From contig CAZKDV010000004.1 in assembly GCA_964551645.1 (NCBI GenBank), positions 1 to 55,221 on the forward strand: DNA of 55,221 bases, given 5' to 3'. Positions 5,720-54,865 of the stretch are shown one piece after another. The notes under the pieces are model-generated. The model did not search any database. It was given only the letters and a program-made list of their open reading frames with translations, and had not been told where the DNA came from. The number at the start of each line of letters is the position of its first letter. The stretch's first letter is position 1. Position numbers and translations under genes: made by a program. This stretch comes from an uncultured Bacteroidales bacterium (lineage in GTDB: Bacteria > Bacteroidota > Bacteroidia > Bacteroidales > DTU049).

Positions 5720-8700
5720 ATGTTTAAAAAATTACTTAGCGGATTTAGCTTAATGTTGCTGATAACAGCCACTGTTCTTGCACAAAGCGGAACACTTATG
5801 GGTAAATTGAAAGATAAGGAAACTGGAGAACCAATTCCGTTTGCTAATATAGTTGCTGAAACAGCAGGGCGCCAAGTGGGAGGTTCTACAACAAACTTTG
5901 ACGGAGAATATACTATCAGACCAATTACTCCAGGTAGATATGATGTTAAAGCAACTTATGTCGGATACAAACCAATTATGATTCAAAATGTTATTATTTC
6001 TCCTGATAAAATAACATTTTTAGATGTTGAAATGGAATCAACTGCGGTTACTTTAACCACATTTGAAGTTGTTGATTATAAAGTCCCACTTATAGAAAAA
6101 GATGGTGGTGCTTCTGGCGGAACATTAACTAAAGAAGAAATTGAAAAAATGCCCGGCAGAAGTGCTACTTCTGTTGCAGTTACAGTTGGTGGTGTGTTTT
6201 CACAAGACGGTGAAGTTGGAAGCATCAGAGGACAAAGAAGCGAGGGTACAGTTATGTATATAGATGGTGTTCGTGTTAGAGGTTCCGGAGCTCTTCCAAA
6301 ATCTGCACTTGATCAAGTTCAAGTTATTACCGGAGGTTTGCCAGCACAATACGGAGATGCTACAGGTGGTATTATCCAAATTACTACCAGAGGAGCTTCA
6401 AGAGAGTTTGGTGGTGGCGTTGAGTTTCTTACATCTCAGTTTTTAGACCCTTATGGGTATAATTTGTTAGGATTTAGTGTTCAAGGACCACTTATTAAAG
6501 GCTCTGGAGAAAATAGTACATCTTTACTTGGATTTTTTCTTTCAGGAGAACTTAGCAGACAAGCTGACGGTAGACCATTTGCAACGCCAATAGGGGTATA
6601 TAAAGCTACAGATGAAGTTCTTGAATACTTAGAAGAAAATCCATTAAGACCTACAGGTTTAGGCTTCGGTGCTTTCCAAAACGGATCTTATATCAGAATG
6701 TCTGATTTAGAAAAAATGAAGTCAAAAATAAATAATACATCTTACGGTGTTAATTTGGCTGGAAGATTAGATGTTAGAACAAACCCAAACTCAAACTTAG
6801 CATTCGGAGGTTCTTTGAATTATAATACTGGAATTGCCTATGTTCATAGCTATAGCTTGTTCAATCATAAAAGCTTTCCTGTTTCAACAGATAATACTTG
6901 GCGTGTTTACGGAAGATATATGCAAAGATTTCCTACCGATTCTGCAAGCAGATCTCCAATTCAAAATGTTAACTATACAATCCAAGCAGACTATTCAAAA
7001 TATACAAGTATAGCACAAGATGCTAATCATAGAGATAATTTATTTGACTATGGATATATTGGTAAGTTTACGACTCATAAAGTTAAATCTTATGAATTAG
7101 GTGATTTGCCAAACAAAGGATTATATGATGTGTATATACACAATGGGTTTAGAGATACATTATACGATTTTGAACCTATGGATGTAAACCCAATTTTGGC
7201 AACATATACAGGAAGATATTATGACTTATATCCATTATATTCAGGAATGTACTCTAATAGTGTTTTAGTTCAAAATGGTGGAGGATTATTGAATGGAGAA
7301 ATGCCACCTTCAATTTATGGATTATGGACAAGTCCGGGAACAGTATATAATAGTTACGGATATTCTGACGCTAGTTCAGTAGGTATCACAGCTCAAGCTT
7401 CTGCCGATGTTGGAAGGCATGCAATTCAATTCGGATTTCAATATGAACAAAGATCAGACAGTTATTACGGTTCTGCTCCAGCTGGATTATGGTACAGAAT
7501 GAGGCAACTTACAAATAAACATATCGAACAAATTGATACAGCTAACCCTATTCTTGTGTTTGATGCAATGGGTATATTTCAAGATACTGTTTGGTATAAT
7601 AGATTATATGATGGTGCATCTCAATCATTTTTTGACTATAATTTGAGACAACACTTGAATTTGCCTGTTGATGGCTTAGATTGGTTAGATATTGACAGTT
7701 ACGACCCAAGTACATTTGATATTTCATGGTTTAGTGCTGACGAATTATTAAATGAAGGAACAAGTCCTTATGTTGCATACTATGGATACGACCACACAGG
7801 TAAAAAATTGAAACATAAGCCAAGTTTTGATGATTTCTTCACTAAACAGGATAAATACGGAAATTATACTCGCGAAATCCCTGCATTTGAACCTATTTAT
7901 ATGGCAGGTTATATTCAAGATAAATTTGCATTTAGAGATTTGATTTTCAATATCGGAATTCGTGTTGACAGATTTGATGCAAACCAAAAAGTATTAAAAG
8001 ATCCATACTTATTATATGAGGCAAAAACAGTAGGAGATATTGGAGATGAGTTTGGAGAAATTCCTTCAAATATGGGAGATGATTTTGTTATCTACATGAA
8101 TGATACAAGATTTCCGAATGCAATTTTAGGCTATCGTGATGGCGATGTATGGTACAATGCTCAGGGGCTTGAAATTACTGACCCAACTTTAATTTCTTCT
8201 CCAGGAGGTATTGCTCCTTATTTAGTAAATCCGGAATTAACCAAACCAACATCAGATGCCTTTAAAGATTACGAACCTCAGATTAGCGTTATGCCTCGTT
8301 TGTCTTTCTCTTTCCCAATTTCTGACGAAGCTCTTTTCTTTGCTCACTACGATGTTGTTACACAACGCCCAACAACTGGATTAAGATTAGACCCAACAGA
8401 CTATTACTTTATTCAAGCGAAAGGACAAAGCGTTTTGAACAACCCAAATTTAAAACCTCAAATGACCGTTGATTATGAACTTGGTTTTCAACAAATGCTG
8501 AATATTCGTTCATCAATTAAATTTTCAGCTTACTATAAAGAAATGCGTAACCAAATTCAAGTTTATCGCTTTACAGGAGCTCACCCCATGTCGTATATTT
8601 CATATAATAATATTGACTTTGGTACAGTTAAAGGTATGACTATTTCTTATGACCTAAGAAGAAATGTAAATATTTGGATAAAAGCTAATTATACATTACA

Positions 8701-22247: not shown

Positions 22248-22319
<72 letters not shown>

Positions 22320-50387: not shown

Positions 50388-51031
50388 AAATAAATTTAGC
50401 AGAAAAAATTTTAATTTTATCCCCTCATACTGATGATGCTGAGCTTGGAGCTGGCGGTTTTATTTCCCAATTATTAGAAGAAGAAAAAAATATTTTATGG
50501 GTAGTTTTTTCTTCAGCAAGAGAGTCAGTCCCCAAAAATATGCCAATAGATACTCTTTCAGTAGAGTTTAAAAATGTAATGAAATCAATTGGGTTAGAAA
50601 AAAATAATTATTTATTACTAGATTATGTAGTTCGTAGGTTAAATGAAAAACGACAAGATATTTTAGAAATGCTTGTTAAAATTAAAAAAGAATTTAATCC
50701 AGACTTGGTTATAGGTCCATCAATAAATGATTACCATCAAGACCATCAGGTTGTTGCTACCGAAATGATTAGGGCATTTAAAATGAGCGCCAGTATAATT
50801 TCTTATGAATTGCCATGGAACAATTTAAAATTTGAAAATCAAATGTTTGTCAAATTAGAAGAAAAGCATATTGACCATAAAATTAAAATGTTAAAAAACT
50901 ATAAATCTCAGATTTATCAAAACAAACCTTATTTTTCAGAAAACTTTATTAAAGGTCATGCATATTCAAGAGGTACACAAGTTTCAACAGAATATGCTGA
51001 AGCATTTGAGGTTGTCAGAATGATTATTTAA
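50384..51031 (+). CDS. PIG-L/LmbE-family N-acetylglucosaminyl deacetylase
   Basis: ILILSPHTDDAELGAGG and NDYHQDHQ zinc-site motifs. ATGA overlap with the acyltransferase gene. Confidence 0.85.
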   Translation: MKINLAEKILILSPHTDDAELGAGGFISQLLEEEKNILWVVFSSARESVPKNMPIDTLSVEFKNVMKSIGLEKNNYLLLDYVVRRLNEKRQDILEMLVKIKKEFNPDLVIGPSINDYHQDHQVVATEMIRAFKMSASIISYELPWNNLKFENQMFVKLEEKHIDHKIKMLKNYKSQIYQNKPYFSENFIKGHAYSRGTQVSTEYAEAFEVVRMII

Positions 51032-51074
51032 TTTTGCGAATACAAAAATAATCAAAATATTGAAACTATAATAG

Positions 51075-51540
51075 AGAGCACAACAGTACTTCTCCGTAAA
51101 CTCTGTGGTAAAATCTCAACAACTTATTAACCACAAAGCACACAAAGCAAGCACAAAGGGCACAATTCTATTTCTCTGTGAACTTAGTGCCTCCACTGTG
51201 AACTCTGTGGTAAAAAAAATGACACTTCATTAACCACAAAGCACACAAAGAATGCACAGAGGACACAACACTATTCCTCCGTGAACATTGTGCCTCCTCA
51301 GTGAACTCTGTGGTTAAAAAAACGACACTTCATTAACCACAAAGAACACAAAGCAAACACAAAGGGCACAATTCTATTTCCTTGTGAGCTTAGTGCCTAC
51401 ATTGTGAACTCTGTGGTTAAAAAAAGGAAATTCATTAACCACAAAGCACACAAAGCAAACACAAAAACACAGTTTTATCTTTCTGTGAATTTAGTTCTTC
51501 TACTATGGTGAAAAAATAATTATATTTGTAAAAAATCATT
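51075..51540. repeat. tandem array of about 103-bp palindromic CACAAAG-rich units (partial copy, three full copies, one degenerate copy)
   Basis: Units at 51127-51229, 51230-51332 and 51333-51434; a degenerate unit from 51435; a partial unit at about 51075-51126. Each starts TTAACCACAAAGCACACAAAG and ends GTGAACTCTGTGGTTAA(A)n. Confidence 0.9.
51521..51528 (+). promoter_or_regulatory. Bacteroidota-type -7 box TATATTTG
   Basis: 12 nt upstream of ATG 51541, inside the degenerate last repeat unit. Confidence 0.4.
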
Positions 51541-51924
51541 ATGACCGAAAACGAAATAGCCATAAAAGTAATCGAATGTGCAATAAAAGTTCACAAAGCA
51601 TTAGGTCATGGTTTGTTAGAAGAAGCATATAAAAAATGCCTTTACTATAAATTAGTCAAAGAAGGCTTGTATGTGGAGAAAGAAAAAGTCTTACCATTAA
51701 TTTTTGAAGACATCGAAATTGATAGAGCCTATAGAATTGATTTGCTTGTAGAAAACAAACTTGTTTTAGAATTAAAAAGTGTTGAAGCATTAAATGATGT
51801 ACATTTAGCCCAAATATTAACTTATTTAAAGTTAGGCGACTTCAAATTAGGATTGCTACTGAATTTTAATGTAACAATAATGAAAAATGGCATAAGAAGA
51901 GTAATAAATGGGACACTTAATTAA
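51541..51924 (+). CDS. GxxExxY-family protein (small, PD-(D/E)XK-like fold by recollection)
   Basis: 127 aa. KVHKALGHGLLEEAYKKCLYYKL contains the GxxExxY signature. YRIDLLVENKLVLELKSV resembles a D...ExK-type core. The stop codon lies inside the next repeat unit. Confidence 0.85.
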   Translation: MTENEIAIKVIECAIKVHKALGHGLLEEAYKKCLYYKLVKEGLYVEKEKVLPLIFEDIEIDRAYRIDLLVENKLVLELKSVEALNDVHLAQILTYLKLGDFKLGLLLNFNVTIMKNGIRRVINGTLN

Positions 51925-51992
51925 CCACAAAGCACACAATTGTATTTATTCGTGAACTTAGTGCCTCCACTGTGAACTCTGTGGTTAAAAAA
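51921..51992. repeat. terminal (shortened) copy of the same repeat unit
   Basis: TTAACCACAAAGCACACAA...CGTGAACTTAGTGCCTCCACTGTGAACTCTGTGGTTAAAAAA. The second half is identical to unit 1. Confidence 0.85.
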
Positions 51993-52006
51993 TTAATTTC
52001 TTAATA

Positions 52007-52189
52007 TATTTGTTCAATATTGCCAAATCACATTACAATACATCTAAATATGTTCCTTTTGGAGCTATTAGCAAAGCCATGCCTTATTTGATTAGGAGAG
52101 CGGAAGAAAAAAACTCATCTGTGCAAGAACAATCAAATAGAGAATTGTACAATATCAAAAAAGAATTAAAAAGAAGGAAAAACAAATAG
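52007..52189 (+). pseudogene. 3'-terminal remnant (about 60 codons) of a proline dehydrogenase gene
   Basis: The frame is open only from 51989; the in-frame TAA at 51986-51988 lies inside the repeat. Translation ...YLFNIAKSHYNTSKYVPFGAISKAMPYLIRRAEEKNSSVQEQSNRELYNIKKELKRRKNK* matches my recollection of the conserved Pro_dh C-terminus (KY-P-[FY]-G...MPYLIRRAEEN...RE). No start codon, promoter or upstream coding sequence is present. Confidence 0.65.
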
Positions 52190-52204
52190 ATTTTTTTCTG
52201 CCTT

Positions 52205-54865
52205 TTACCTAATGATAGTTAGCGAAGATTTGTGTATTTTGTCATAGTAGTAGAACAAATAATAGTATGTTCCTTCTGACAAATTATCTCCGTCCCAATC
52301 GTTTTGATAGTCGGTTTGTTCAAATACCTTGTTGCCCCAACGGTTGAACACAGCTATTTTGTTAGGTATTTTGTGTCCATTAACAATTTCAAGTTTATCG
52401 TTTATTCCGTCCCCATTTGGAGTGATAATATTTGGAAATGTCAATTGGTCGTCTATAATTTTCACCTCTTTAGTGATTGAATCTTCACACTTATAATCGT
52501 TTGACAAATAAAGAGTTACTGTGTAAGACGAATCAACACCTGGGTATGTATGAGCTACATTATTTTTAGATGTATTATCTTGTGTTCCATCGCCAAAATC
52601 CCAAAGCCAATATTGTGCATCAGAAGTAGATGTAAAACTTATATTTGGCTCAATAACAGTTCCATAGTCGGGAGAAAAAGTAAAATCGGCAATTGGTTGT
52701 GGATATGCTTGAATATAATCATTCATAGTCAATGATTTTTTACAACCCTTATCACTTGAAACAGAGAGTTTAACGCTATATTTACCTTCAGTATATGTGT
52801 TTGAAGGATTTTGCTGAGTTGAAGAATTTCCATCACCAAAATCCCAATTCCACTCAACAATATTGCTTCCGCTTGATGCATCATTAAATTGTACTGTAAT
52901 GGGCGAACAGCCAGAAATAGGATTTCCGGAAAAACTAATTATTGGAGACGGAAAAACCGAAAGCTGAACAGATGCAGAACCAAAACATTCATTTTCATCG
53001 CTAACTGTAACTGTATATGTACCGGACATATTAGAAGTTGTGTTAGTGATATTATTTGAAGAATTTGTGCTTGAAAATGAATTTGGTCCCGACCACACAT
53101 AAGAATCTTGTGTACTTGAAGGGCTTGCATTGGCACTAAAAGTAAGTGCTTCGCCTTCGCAAATATCGTTGTTTGAAGTAATAGTAACATCAAGTTTGTG
53201 TTCGTCAACAGTAACACATCCTGTGATTACTTCATTCTTTGCATCGGTAACTGTAACGCAATATGTTTCGGCACACAAACCAACAGCTGTTTTTGTAGTT
53301 TGAGCCATTCCGTCATTCCACTGATAAGTATATGGTTCTTGTCCTCCCGATACTGTAACTGTTGCTGTTCCAGTGCATGTAATAATAGGTTCTGGATTGC
53401 ATGTAGTGTTACAATAACCAATTGTTGGGTTGGCTGCACTTGTTCCCCAATCTCCACCATCAGGAACTCTTCTATAGCTTAAACCTTCAAATTGTCCCGC
53501 TTCGTAACTAGTTATATATTTTTTTCTATCATTAGGAATACTTGTATATGAAGCCAAAGGACCTGTATAATTACAAGCACCAATAACACCTGGATTACAC
53601 GGAGAACATGACATACATGAGTTTGATTGATTTCCCCAAGAAATAGCATCTTGAGGTACTCCATTCCTATCATAAAAAGCAAACCAACCACCTGCATTTG
53701 GGAACCATAATCTATAACCACCGCCTAAGCATATTCTTGAAGCATTATTTATCACAATTTCAACAGTTTTTCCACCATTTTGAACTAAATGTTGTGCAGG
53801 AACAGCAGGTGCATACATGCCTCTAATCAGACAAAAGCCTTGAGGAGGAATAATTGTACCTTCGGGAATCAAAAAGCCTCCGGGATAATCTATATTACCA
53901 TCTATGGCATTATTTCCAAGGAAATAACAAGAAATATCAATGGATTGACACTCATCAGGATTATACAACTCAATCCATTCTCCATGACAATCTCCGGAAG
54001 AAAAACCAGGTCCAAGTCCATAAATTGAACCATCATTATATGTTGGAGCAAGCATAACTTCATTTATCAATATTGAAGGTCCTTCATAATTGCAACCAAA
54101 ACCATTGCAAACGGTATTAATTTCCGCAGACATTGAAATTTCCATATCAGTTAATTTAATATATGAAAGTTTCACTTCATCAATGGCAAAACCGGGGTCA
54201 GTTCCTCCTCCATAAGTATAATCAAACATAAATCCAATCAATAGACTTGCTTTATTGTCAAAAGCAGGATTTTTAACAGATTCAAATGTCCATGCATCTG
54301 TGCCATTATATGTTTTGCCTATATCATTCCAAGTGTTTCCATTATCTGTACTATACCAAACAGAACCTCTTTCACCATTGCATAACCACCAAAAAGAAAG
54401 TGTTACATCACTAATGCCCGTTGTATTAATTGGAGTAGCCATTTTTGTGAAAATTGTACCTGCCTGACCACCAACAAAGCCGGCTGAAGTACCATCAATA
54501 TAATTGCAATTGGCAACTCCACTCTCCTCAGCATCTTTAGAAACAGTATGCAAATAGAAACTTTGTGGACTATTGGTTACTCCTGAAGGTTGATTTTTTG
54601 TATCAACAACAGTAACTGGCATAAATCCCAAAAATGTGTAGGTTCCACCTTGATAAACATTATTGACAATCCAAACATTTGCACTGGAAGCACCTAAACT
54701 ACCAACATCATTAGTGTTAAGTGTCCATTTTGATATGCCACTTTCAAAATTATCATAAAATAATTCAATTTCTTGAGCATTTGCACTTATAACCGTAAAA
54801 AAAGCTATACCTACAATTGATAACTTTGAGGACATATAATTAGAAAAATACTTTAATGTTTTCAT
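52205..54865 (-). CDS. T9SS type-B-CTD (gliding-motility-associated C-terminal domain) surface protein with lamin-tail and PKD domains
   Basis: The C-terminus FPNIITPNGDGINDKLEIVNG...AVFNRWGNKVFEQTDYQNDWDG...GTYYYLFYY is the type-B sorting domain. It has two PKD modules (WNWDFGDGNSS, WLWDFGDGTQD) and an LTD (ILINEVM...GEWIELYNP). Start ambiguous: ATG at 54901, 54865 or 54835. Confidence 0.85.
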   Translation of the reverse strand: MKTLKYFSNYMSSKLSIVGIAFFTVISANAQEIELFYDNFESGISKWTLNTNDVGSLGASSANVWIVNNVYQGGTYTFLGFMPVTVVDTKNQPSGVTNSPQSFYLHTVSKDAEESGVANCNYIDGTSAGFVGGQAGTIFTKMATPINTTGISDVTLSFWWLCNGERGSVWYSTDNGNTWNDIGKTYNGTDAWTFESVKNPAFDNKASLLIGFMFDYTYGGGTDPGFAIDEVKLSYIKLTDMEISMSAEINTVCNGFGCNYEGPSILINEVMLAPTYNDGSIYGLGPGFSSGDCHGEWIELYNPDECQSIDISCYFLGNNAIDGNIDYPGGFLIPEGTIIPPQGFCLIRGMYAPAVPAQHLVQNGGKTVEIVINNASRICLGGGYRLWFPNAGGWFAFYDRNGVPQDAISWGNQSNSCMSCSPCNPGVIGACNYTGPLASYTSIPNDRKKYITSYEAGQFEGLSYRRVPDGGDWGTSAANPTIGYCNTTCNPEPIITCTGTATVTVSGGQEPYTYQWNDGMAQTTKTAVGLCAETYCVTVTDAKNEVITGCVTVDEHKLDVTITSNNDICEGEALTFSANASPSSTQDSYVWSGPNSFSSTNSSNNITNTTSNMSGTYTVTVSDENECFGSASVQLSVFPSPIISFSGNPISGCSPITVQFNDASSGSNIVEWNWDFGDGNSSTQQNPSNTYTEGKYSVKLSVSSDKGCKKSLTMNDYIQAYPQPIADFTFSPDYGTVIEPNISFTSTSDAQYWLWDFGDGTQDNTSKNNVAHTYPGVDSSYTVTLYLSNDYKCEDSITKEVKIIDDQLTFPNIITPNGDGINDKLEIVNGHKIPNKIAVFNRWGNKVFEQTDYQNDWDGDNLSEGTYYYLFYYYDKIHKSSLTIIR

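Follow-up and report, generated by a model that had tools for sequence, protein, structure and literature searches.

The 55,221-nucleotide stretch of DNA analysed here (the window) derives from an uncultured Bacteroidales bacterium (GenBank assembly GCA_964551645.1, contig CAZKDV010000004.1, positions 1 to 55,221 of the forward strand) and carries, near its right end, a tandem array of palindromic units built from iterated CACAAAG heptamers and situated on both sides of a gene of the GxxExxY family. With high confidence we identify the array as the ends of a GxxExxY cassette, copied by tandem duplication and devoid of the open reading frame (ORF) that such ends normally enclose. With moderate confidence, and from comparison of sequences, we propose that the heptamers are recognized by a factor whose specificity is conserved, the best candidate being the nuclease putatively encoded by the cassette itself. 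The combination of these two propositions, ORF-less copies of cassette ends bearing heptamer sites putatively bound by the nuclease, is the explanation we prefer, and we assign it a probability of roughly 0.55. Together, the observations described below suggest that the GxxExxY cassette is a widespread selfish element; a limited search of the literature returned no description of it, and the terms "GxxExxY" and "PDDEXK_3" were mentioned only incidentally.

The relationship between repeat and gene is most apparent in a set of 80 GxxExxY loci sampled from metagenomes by protein, not by repeat. Among the 70 genes with enough flanking sequence for the count, 52 (74%) are preceded within 110 nt by at least two forward modules, found in 0.5% of background windows, and 56 (80%) are followed within the same distance by at least two reverse modules, found in 1.0% of background windows; both arms occur within 110 nt at 45 of the 70. 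Every split pair of arms in these loci (53 of 53) encloses a GxxExxY ORF, as does the single convincing split pair, in L005, detected in 0.6 Mb of unselected loci. An association of the repeat with GxxExxY genes, proposed in an earlier note on this DNA, is therefore strong, but the repeats do not merely flank the gene: it normally lies inside a split element. This layout, with a run of forward modules upstream and a run of reverse modules downstream, characterizes 43 of 65 distinct GxxExxY genes, while six others show a closed hairpin upstream together with the gene's own 3' arm and two show an ORF between two closed hairpins, the variant also present in the window and further exemplified by L089 and L004. 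Among strict elements in the GxxExxY loci, 14 of the 17 are no farther than 500 nt from the gene. No cargo but GxxExxY was detected between CACAAAG arms; a generic search for further ORFs whose flanks can pair gave output dominated by GC-rich noise.

Complete cassettes have a median length of 486 nt and encode a protein of about 125 residues. The 5' arm begins (T)TAACC[A/G]CAAAG and continues with two to three more C[A/G]CN[A/G]AG modules, predominantly at a 9-nt period, giving three to four modules per arm, with a median of 14 nt between the last module and the ATG; the 3' arm presents the same modules inverted, ends in CTTTG[T/C]GGTTAA and is followed by a run of A. Two sub-types are distinguished by CACAAAG and CGCAAAG modules. 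The upstream neighbour shares the orientation of the cassette in 54 of 61 cases, the downstream one in 46 of 55, and the median gaps to these genes, 97 and 101 nt, leave no room for a promoter or terminator belonging to the cassette; in the window, neither is predicted. At two loci (L115, ~5890-5915; L118, ~2380-2410) the 25 nt ahead of the 5' arm read ...AATAATGGCAACTAA, resembling the tail of a GxxExxY-like ORF, which suggests that cassettes also occur in tandem.

ORF-less hairpins are broadly dispersed. A scan with the pattern TTAACCACAAAG-N40-70-CTCTGTGGTTAA, in which one genome per species was searched, retrieved 91 copies in 89 loci. Of the 80 loci with listed titles, 48 belong to Bacteroidota and 32 to other groups, comprising Verrucomicrobiota, Acidobacteriota, Planctomycetota, Hydrogenedentota, Lentisphaerota, Chlamydiota, Cyanobacteria, Nitrospira, Desulfobacterales, Calditrichota, WOR-3 and Micavibrio. 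The same modules and the same 12-nt termini recur in hosts of 33-68% GC representing more than 10 phyla. Contamination of metagenome-assembled genomes (MAGs) was considered as a source of the cross-phylum matches and set aside, since the non-Bacteroidota loci have a median GC content of 0.57, as against 0.40 in Bacteroidota loci, and are therefore not mis-binned contigs. The solo copies are 65-94 nt long, with two to four CAC[AG][AG]AG modules in the 5' half, matching CT[CT][CT]GTG modules in the 3' half and freely varying interiors; conservation ends exactly at TTAA, and no direct repeats were found outside the TTAA ends. They sit between unrelated housekeeping genes, with no flanking family enriched, and just 4 of the 91 have a GxxExxY ORF within 1.5 kb. 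Copies elsewhere, which the earlier note had proposed to seek, are widespread but lie, when solo, mostly beside unrelated genes. Gene ends facing the hairpins are 3' ends in 79 instances and 5' ends in 44, and the hairpins are oriented at random with respect to these genes (38 vs 41). Between species, hairpins at four orthologous sites are 80-97% identical and their flanks 68-87%; within a single genome, solo copies are strongly diverged.

Several observations from this survey stand apart. Spread by phages was considered and rejected, a single match having been obtained in 2.9 million viral contigs and no match in PHROG, and an apparent common right flank of L039 and L013 turned out to be coincidental. 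In the Hydrogenedentota loci L024 (4900-6250, minus strand) and L027, three CACGAAT modules (translating as NHEWTRIYTNK) precede each closed CACAAAG hairpin, both lying within a repeat of 330-490 nt, and these may be nested or composite elements. In a Pyrinomonadaceae MAG (L064, 2130-2740), an rbfA-like ORF lies between hairpins of GGGTGTT/AACACCC heptamers, which make up another family of modular palindromes with a different motif.

How a cassette gives rise to closed hairpins and arrays is illustrated by two other loci. L091 contains four or more closed 147-nt units ahead of an ORF-bearing copy, and the loops of these units join the 5' leader CACAGATAAACTTAC to the last ORF codons, which marks each closed unit as having lost the ORF by internal deletion. 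The duplicated unit there takes in 57 nt of spacer extraneous to the element, and two units are identical as printed; the copied spacer and the identical units argue for tandem duplication rather than re-insertion. L114 has an array with a 100-nt period in which at least four closed units, an ORF-bearing unit and at least five closed units follow one another; at ~1455-1500 that array ends beside a putative minus-strand tRNA gene, of which the apparent 3' end (...GGAGACGAAGGGATTCGAACCC...) lies next to it. The array in the window is of the same recurrent type.

Within the window this array is the strongest tandem repeat identified by Tandem Repeats Finder (51099-51495; period 103, 3.9 copies, 80% matches, score 512). 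The terminus TTAACCACAAAG, allowing one mismatch, occurs eight times in the window, always at the array region, compared with 0.68 occurrences expected from shuffles and none of 100 shuffles reaching eight; the 940 nt of the region hold 13 of the 33 forward and 11 of the 30 reverse modules of the entire window. Units consist of an imperfect palindrome of ~88 nt and an A-rich spacer of ~15 nt, and all lie on the plus strand. The first, u0 (51075-51126, its start approximate), is a partial copy recognized by alignment to the full units and also present in the sister contig L090, retaining the interior and the 3' arm (...GTAAACTCTGTGGTAAAA) and lacking the 5' arm. Unit u1 (51127-51229) is a closed ORF-less hairpin (51127-51214) followed by a 15-nt spacer, with three CACAAAG modules in its 5' arm and three CTNNGTG modules in its 3' arm. 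Unit u2 (51230-51332; hairpin 51230-51317, then spacer) matches the post-gene copy of L090 at 90% identity, the 9 nt ahead of TTAACC included, and u3 (51333-51434; hairpin 51333-51420, then spacer) contains an inverted repeat (I1) with 39-nt arms, 74% complementary. Unit u4 (51435-51510) is degenerate, its 5' arm intact (TTAACCACAAAGCACACAAAG...) and its 3' arm decayed (...CTGTGAATTTAGTTCTTCTACTATGGTG), and a 30-nt A/T-rich leader separates it from the GxxExxY ATG. Directly 3' of the gene lies u5 (51921-51988), a closed hairpin of 68 nt whose full-length homologue in L090 (898-984) measures 87 nt, the difference being an internal deletion of ~20 nt.

Sequence reading and unit alignment bear out the boundaries that the earlier note had drawn for u0 to u4 and the post-gene copy, and further uphold its description of palindromic units with iterated CACAAAG, of inverted repeats across unit junctions (I2 and I4), and of an array free of unique spacers, genuine ORFs and Rfam matches. 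Two details required correction: u1 ends in GTGGTAAA, not in GTGGTTAA, and the post-gene copy, present as described, is the deleted form just mentioned. The units abut and their ~15-nt spacers resemble one another, unlike the short repeats and unique spacers of a CRISPR (clustered regularly interspaced short palindromic repeats) array. The window's ORF list includes only spurious ORFs within the array; one of 42 residues at 51105-51233 (...NHKAHKASTKGT...NSVVKK) is simply the translated arms. At the gathering score, Rfam matched the window only at 22248-22319, with a tRNA, and permissive thresholds yielded for the array just sub-threshold microRNA-like hairpin matches. No terminator-like site was predicted in 50900-52300, and the element is followed by A-rich rather than T-rich sequence, in contrast to the GC-rich hairpin and U-tract of an intrinsic terminator.

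A concern raised beforehand, that the array might be an artefact of assembly, is countered by the units themselves, which are 81-89% alike and not identical, such that an assembler would not have made them. An independent assembly of the locus, the Joint Genome Institute metagenome contig L090, has flanks 97% identical to those of the window and a single upstream unit equivalent to u1, the only full upstream unit common to both, compared with about four in the window, which has 283 extra nt corresponding to u2-u4. The array is therefore real, but varies between strains in copy number.

The gene enclosed by the array (51541-51924, plus strand) encodes a protein of 127 residues with a PD-(D/E)XK nuclease fold, as indicated by matches to Pfam PDDEXK_3 (E=3e-39, 134 bits, cut-off 22) and NCBIfam TIGR04256 (E=1e-39, 135 bits, cut-off 35) and by the catalytic residues D67, E77 and K79, which are invariant across 61 homologues. 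Its TAA stop codon falls inside the TTAACC terminus of u5. An AlphaFold model has an ααβββαβ core (pLDDT 64, pTM 0.65); Foldseek gave no significant match to this model, its top, non-significant matches being small PD-(D/E)XK nucleases (the XisH family, PspGI, a Cas4, VRR-NUC and EcoRV), and sequence comparison found no relatives in the PDB. A survey of 2012 gave PDDEXK_3 no known function and noted "multiple transfers". From the invariant residues and the kind of proteins among the Foldseek matches, nuclease activity of the protein is plausible. In the window copy, His (GHGLLEEAY) replaces a proline, Pro23, that is nearly invariant and is present in the 98%-identical L090 copy; the window copy may be mildly damaged. 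Membership in a defence system was considered and rejected, PADLOC yielding weak Cas4-like matches alone (E~1e-3). GxxExxY proteins elsewhere have been called with N-terminal extensions NHKARQESTKSTEK, FNRKGRKGFSKAHKEEF or MHKEHREKF (P0016, P0051; L098, L130, L136, L145). The odd peptide tails mentioned in the earlier note are indeed translations of the repeat, as NHKAHKASTKGT and NSVVKK in the window and NHKARQESTKSTEK and FNRKGRKGFSKAHKEEF in database proteins and loci.

A second gene family shows the same architecture. Genes of the four-helix-bundle family PF05635 were examined at L115 (1548-1904, E=4e-42) and in five relatives. Those of three genera (Algibacter, Winogradskyella and a Flavobacteriaceae MAG; L177-L180, ~1001-1357) lie within the trp operon, in the order trpE-trpG-[gene]-trpD, and those of Aequorivita and Leeuwenhoekiella (L181, L183; ~1001-1360) lie between fadB-like and thiolase genes. 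Each examined PF05635 gene is nested between modular inverted arms whose module is nAGAYn at a period of ~7 nt, not CACAAAG. The architecture is therefore shared and the arm sequence specific to the cargo, which qualifies an earlier suggestion of a link between the CACAAAG repeat and four-helix-bundle genes: the layout is common to both, but the repeat sequence is not.

Iterated protein-binding sites and a long foldable RNA had been put forward together as explanations of the repeat, and the former accommodates the data better. In the window, units fold at -36 to -40 kcal/mol (z -5 to -7) on the minus strand, compared with about -25 kcal/mol on the plus strand, and local consensus pairs number 31 and 24, respectively; compensatory changes affect two pairs only among five local units, and covariation, recommended in the earlier note as a check, thus offers weak support for RNA structure. 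Strand-specific RNA structure as a general property was rejected, since the minus-strand bias of the window is absent over the 91 copies, whose interiors show no strand preference (47 vs 44). In closed elements, G.T and A.C mismatches are about equally frequent (177 vs 151), and swapping arms between closed elements is nearly cost-free (p=0.06). Complementarity of the 2-nt linkers (0.31 and 0.24) is at the level of chance, as given by arms of different elements (0.28 and 0.27), the commonest linker combination being A.A, and among variable positions the CAC/CGC sub-type alone agrees between both arms of one element. Conserved heptamers joined by linkers that pair no better than chance favour recognition sites over a structured RNA; what is conserved is the heptamer, repeated in one orientation and then in the other, rather than an uninterrupted helix.

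In the sequence of events that emerges, the ORF is lost by internal deletion and a palindrome of 65-94 nt is left. Local tandem duplication, through unequal recombination or slippage that copies the spacer as well, generates arrays, which grow and shrink between close strains. In our interpretation, the iterated heptamers would act as sequence-specific sites, arranged like the ends of multi-site transposons, and the cassette's own nuclease, their predicted binder, would recognize them on full cassettes and, in trans, on ORF-less copies. Its putative action might bring about excision or spread, or might regulate the expression of the nuclease itself, and the potential to form hairpins would be a by-product of placing the same sites, inverted, at both ends. 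We infer mobility of the cassette from its architecture and cross-phylum spread. A more far-reaching formulation, toward which the odds seem to us rather unfavourable, is that GxxExxY would be the end-binding transposase or excisase of TTAA-bounded mobile cassettes of ~0.5 kb, with ORF-less hairpins as non-autonomous partners comparable to REPINs (hairpin-forming doublets of repetitive extragenic palindromic, or REP, sequences) or MITEs (miniature inverted-repeat transposable elements), four-helix-bundle cassettes as a parallel class with its own end motif, and ORF-containing intervening sequences (IVSs) of 23S rRNA as members that had landed in rRNA.

A number of results weigh against the explanation that we prefer. 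Four-helix-bundle cassettes carry no nuclease, and the shared architecture may serve something independent of cargo; the model of the GxxExxY protein is of just moderate confidence (pLDDT 64); and the spacing of the modules, 9 nt or 7 nt, does not correspond to a helical repeat. In the GxxExxY loci, cognate arms pair better than non-cognate ones (-35.9 vs -29.5 kcal/mol, p=1.5e-4), an advantage stemming largely from the CAC/CGC sub-type common to both arms, and in ORF-bearing elements pairing is slightly better on the antisense strand (36 loci, against 15 for the sense strand; p=0.002), a preference that the recognition-site model does not predict. As to mobility, no empty site was found, relatives with PIG-L orthologues of 76-81% identity having unrelated DNA downstream; neither target duplications outside the TTAA ends of elements nor near-identical cassettes in different contexts were found; and copies within one genome are highly diverged.

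Excision of IVSs from 23S rRNA by RNase III is established, and the main rival, which we consider unlikely, extends this process to the cassette: the arms would pair in a read-through operon transcript with the ORF looped out, and RNase III would cut the stem, freeing the cassette mRNA while the host transcript stays functional, such that ORF-less copies would be leftover processing or stabilizing hairpins. Co-orientation of cassettes with their neighbours and the want of space for a promoter or terminator accord with this proposal, as do the duplexes of -36 to -39 kcal/mol that arms around the ORF can form, z-scores of -3 to -7 for the window hairpins, and the occurrence of the same layout in PF05635, a cargo family named for its location in 23S rRNA IVSs. 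It is difficult to reconcile, however, with non-complementary linkers, with a sense strand that pairs worse than the antisense, with solo hairpins showing neither a bias of orientation to transcription nor an excess of G.U over A.C, and with the paucity of compensatory changes among the local units. Moreover, RNase III requires no conserved heptamer, and conservation of the motif across phyla would be left unexplained.

Domestication by the host, whereby a conserved host factor would use the hairpins and their connection with GxxExxY would be merely historical, seems to us decidedly improbable. The roles conceivable here, as non-canonical terminators, stabilizers of mRNA 3' ends, or nucleoid or insulator sites, are akin to those proposed for REP sequences and bacterial interspersed mosaic elements, and would fit the excess of gene 3' ends facing solo hairpins, their persistence at orthologous sites with identities exceeding those of the flanks, and the age and divergence of copies within genomes. 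Yet any tolerated insertion would be expected to show the same 3' bias; the U-tract and terminator-like site are missing; the strict elements in GxxExxY loci cluster near the gene; and the possession of a distinct module by each cargo family points to the cargo and not to a host factor. We regard as very improbable a local duplication devoid of function, or a copy number inflated by assembly. The single upstream unit of L090 and the demonstrated growth of such arrays by tandem duplication are in keeping with such a view, but the family is widespread with a conserved motif, similar arrays arose independently in L091 and L114, and the divergence among units speaks against an assembler as their source. 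An integron-like cassette array, with the palindromes as attC recombination sites, is scarcely credible. Imperfect palindromes of 65-94 nt, TTAAC...GTTAA ends faintly reminiscent of R''/R' core sites, the better folding of the bottom strand in the window and its order of hairpin, ORF and hairpin recall such arrays, but the usual layout places the ORF within a split palindrome and not ahead of a complete site, CACAAAG arms were found to enclose no cargo other than GxxExxY, most copies depart from the core-site consensus, and attC sites preserve structure over sequence, the opposite of what is found here. No integrase was found among the window ORFs scanned, which were part of a set of 36.

In the window, the element occupies an intergenic region of a polysaccharide locus of low GC content (33% over the whole window), between a PIG-L gene and a remnant of a proline dehydrogenase gene. 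Genes for a glycosyltransferase, a hexapeptide transferase and the PIG-L protein lie upstream of the array, and a PKD/SprB protein with a type IX secretion system tail is encoded downstream on the opposite strand; the gene content and GC content place the host in Bacteroidota. The remnant, an ORF of 59 residues at 52010-52189, covers positions 237-276 of the 278 in Pfam Pro_dh and so represents the C-terminus of proline dehydrogenase; the gene is intact in L090, and the window has lost ~1.05 kb between two direct repeats of GTTCAATATT.

GxxExxY (TIGR04256/PDDEXK_3) and the four-helix-bundle proteins (TIGR02436/PF05635) are very large, multi-copy families of unknown function that occur in many phyla. 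The genes of both are nested between ends having their own motif and wedged in housekeeping operons, with ORF-less hairpins left behind, and both families thereby gain a testable biology as putative selfish cassettes with defined cis sites. The findings also offer a way into the long-standing question of why an ORF is found in intervening sequences of 23S rRNA, define a cross-phylum intergenic repeat that is absent from Rfam, and account for annotation artefacts such as the N-terminal tails NHKGHK, HEGHE and TKDTK, the C-terminal tail SVVK, and spurious small ORFs in arrays.

Compared with known systems, the element somewhat resembles REPINs with their RAYT (REP-associated tyrosine transposase) genes, MITEs with their parent elements, and ORF-bearing 23S rRNA IVSs, and fails the defining features of each. 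The REP/REPIN-RAYT system (Bertels & Rainey 2011, PMC3116915) shares with it imperfect palindromes of ~70-100 nt, dispersed between genes and at times in tandem, long vertical persistence, and an associated gene that is itself flanked by repeats; the 91 hairpin copies in 89 loci, between unrelated housekeeping genes, conform to this description. The partner gene differs in encoding a PD-(D/E)XK nuclease of ~125 residues and not a Y1 HUH transposase, and in being multi-copy and normally located inside the element, unlike RAYT; each arm contains three to four iterated heptamers in place of one REP, and the sequence is shared across phyla and not specific to a lineage.

MITEs and their parents, including hairpin repeats of the Correia and ERIC (enterobacterial repetitive intergenic consensus) type, are likewise intergenic and have terminal inverted repeats. 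The ORF-less copies have such ends (TTAACCACAAAG...CTCTGTGGTTAA), the array in the window has no coding capacity beyond spurious ORFs, and closed units have the internal-deletion origin of MITEs, the loops in L091 and L114 keeping the leader and last ORF codons. The GxxExxY parent, unlike those of MITEs, is without a recognized transposase and encodes PDDEXK_3; bursts of near-identical copies are absent and the motif extends across phyla. No direct repeats mark a target-site duplication outside TTAA, and one of TTAA or TA might lie concealed in the termini, where only an empty site would reveal it.

The ORF-bearing IVSs of 23S rRNA (PF05635, "S23p") have a small ORF between complementary ends, co-directional within a host transcription unit. 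The same arrangement holds for the GxxExxY family, in the 43 of 65 loci with the split layout, the window itself being the closed-hairpin variant, and the PF05635 genes of Flavobacteriaceae share the nested layout of GxxExxY cassettes. The element differs from these IVSs in location, with no rRNA match in the window, in its nuclease cargo, in its CACAAAG as opposed to nAGAYn arms, and in linkers whose pairing is not conserved. Integron cassettes and their attC sites are likewise distinct, given a conserved sequence motif, non-complementary linkers and an ORF inside a split element. Transposons with multi-site ends include Tn7, with its TnsB sites, Mu, and the CACTA/En-Spm elements with their subterminal repeats. 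These have in common with the GxxExxY element a short motif that is repeated several times at one end and recurs in inverted orientation at the other, the linkers being variable in sequence; the GxxExxY element, whose transposition is putative, differs from them in its size of ~0.5 kb and its single tiny PD-(D/E)XK protein.

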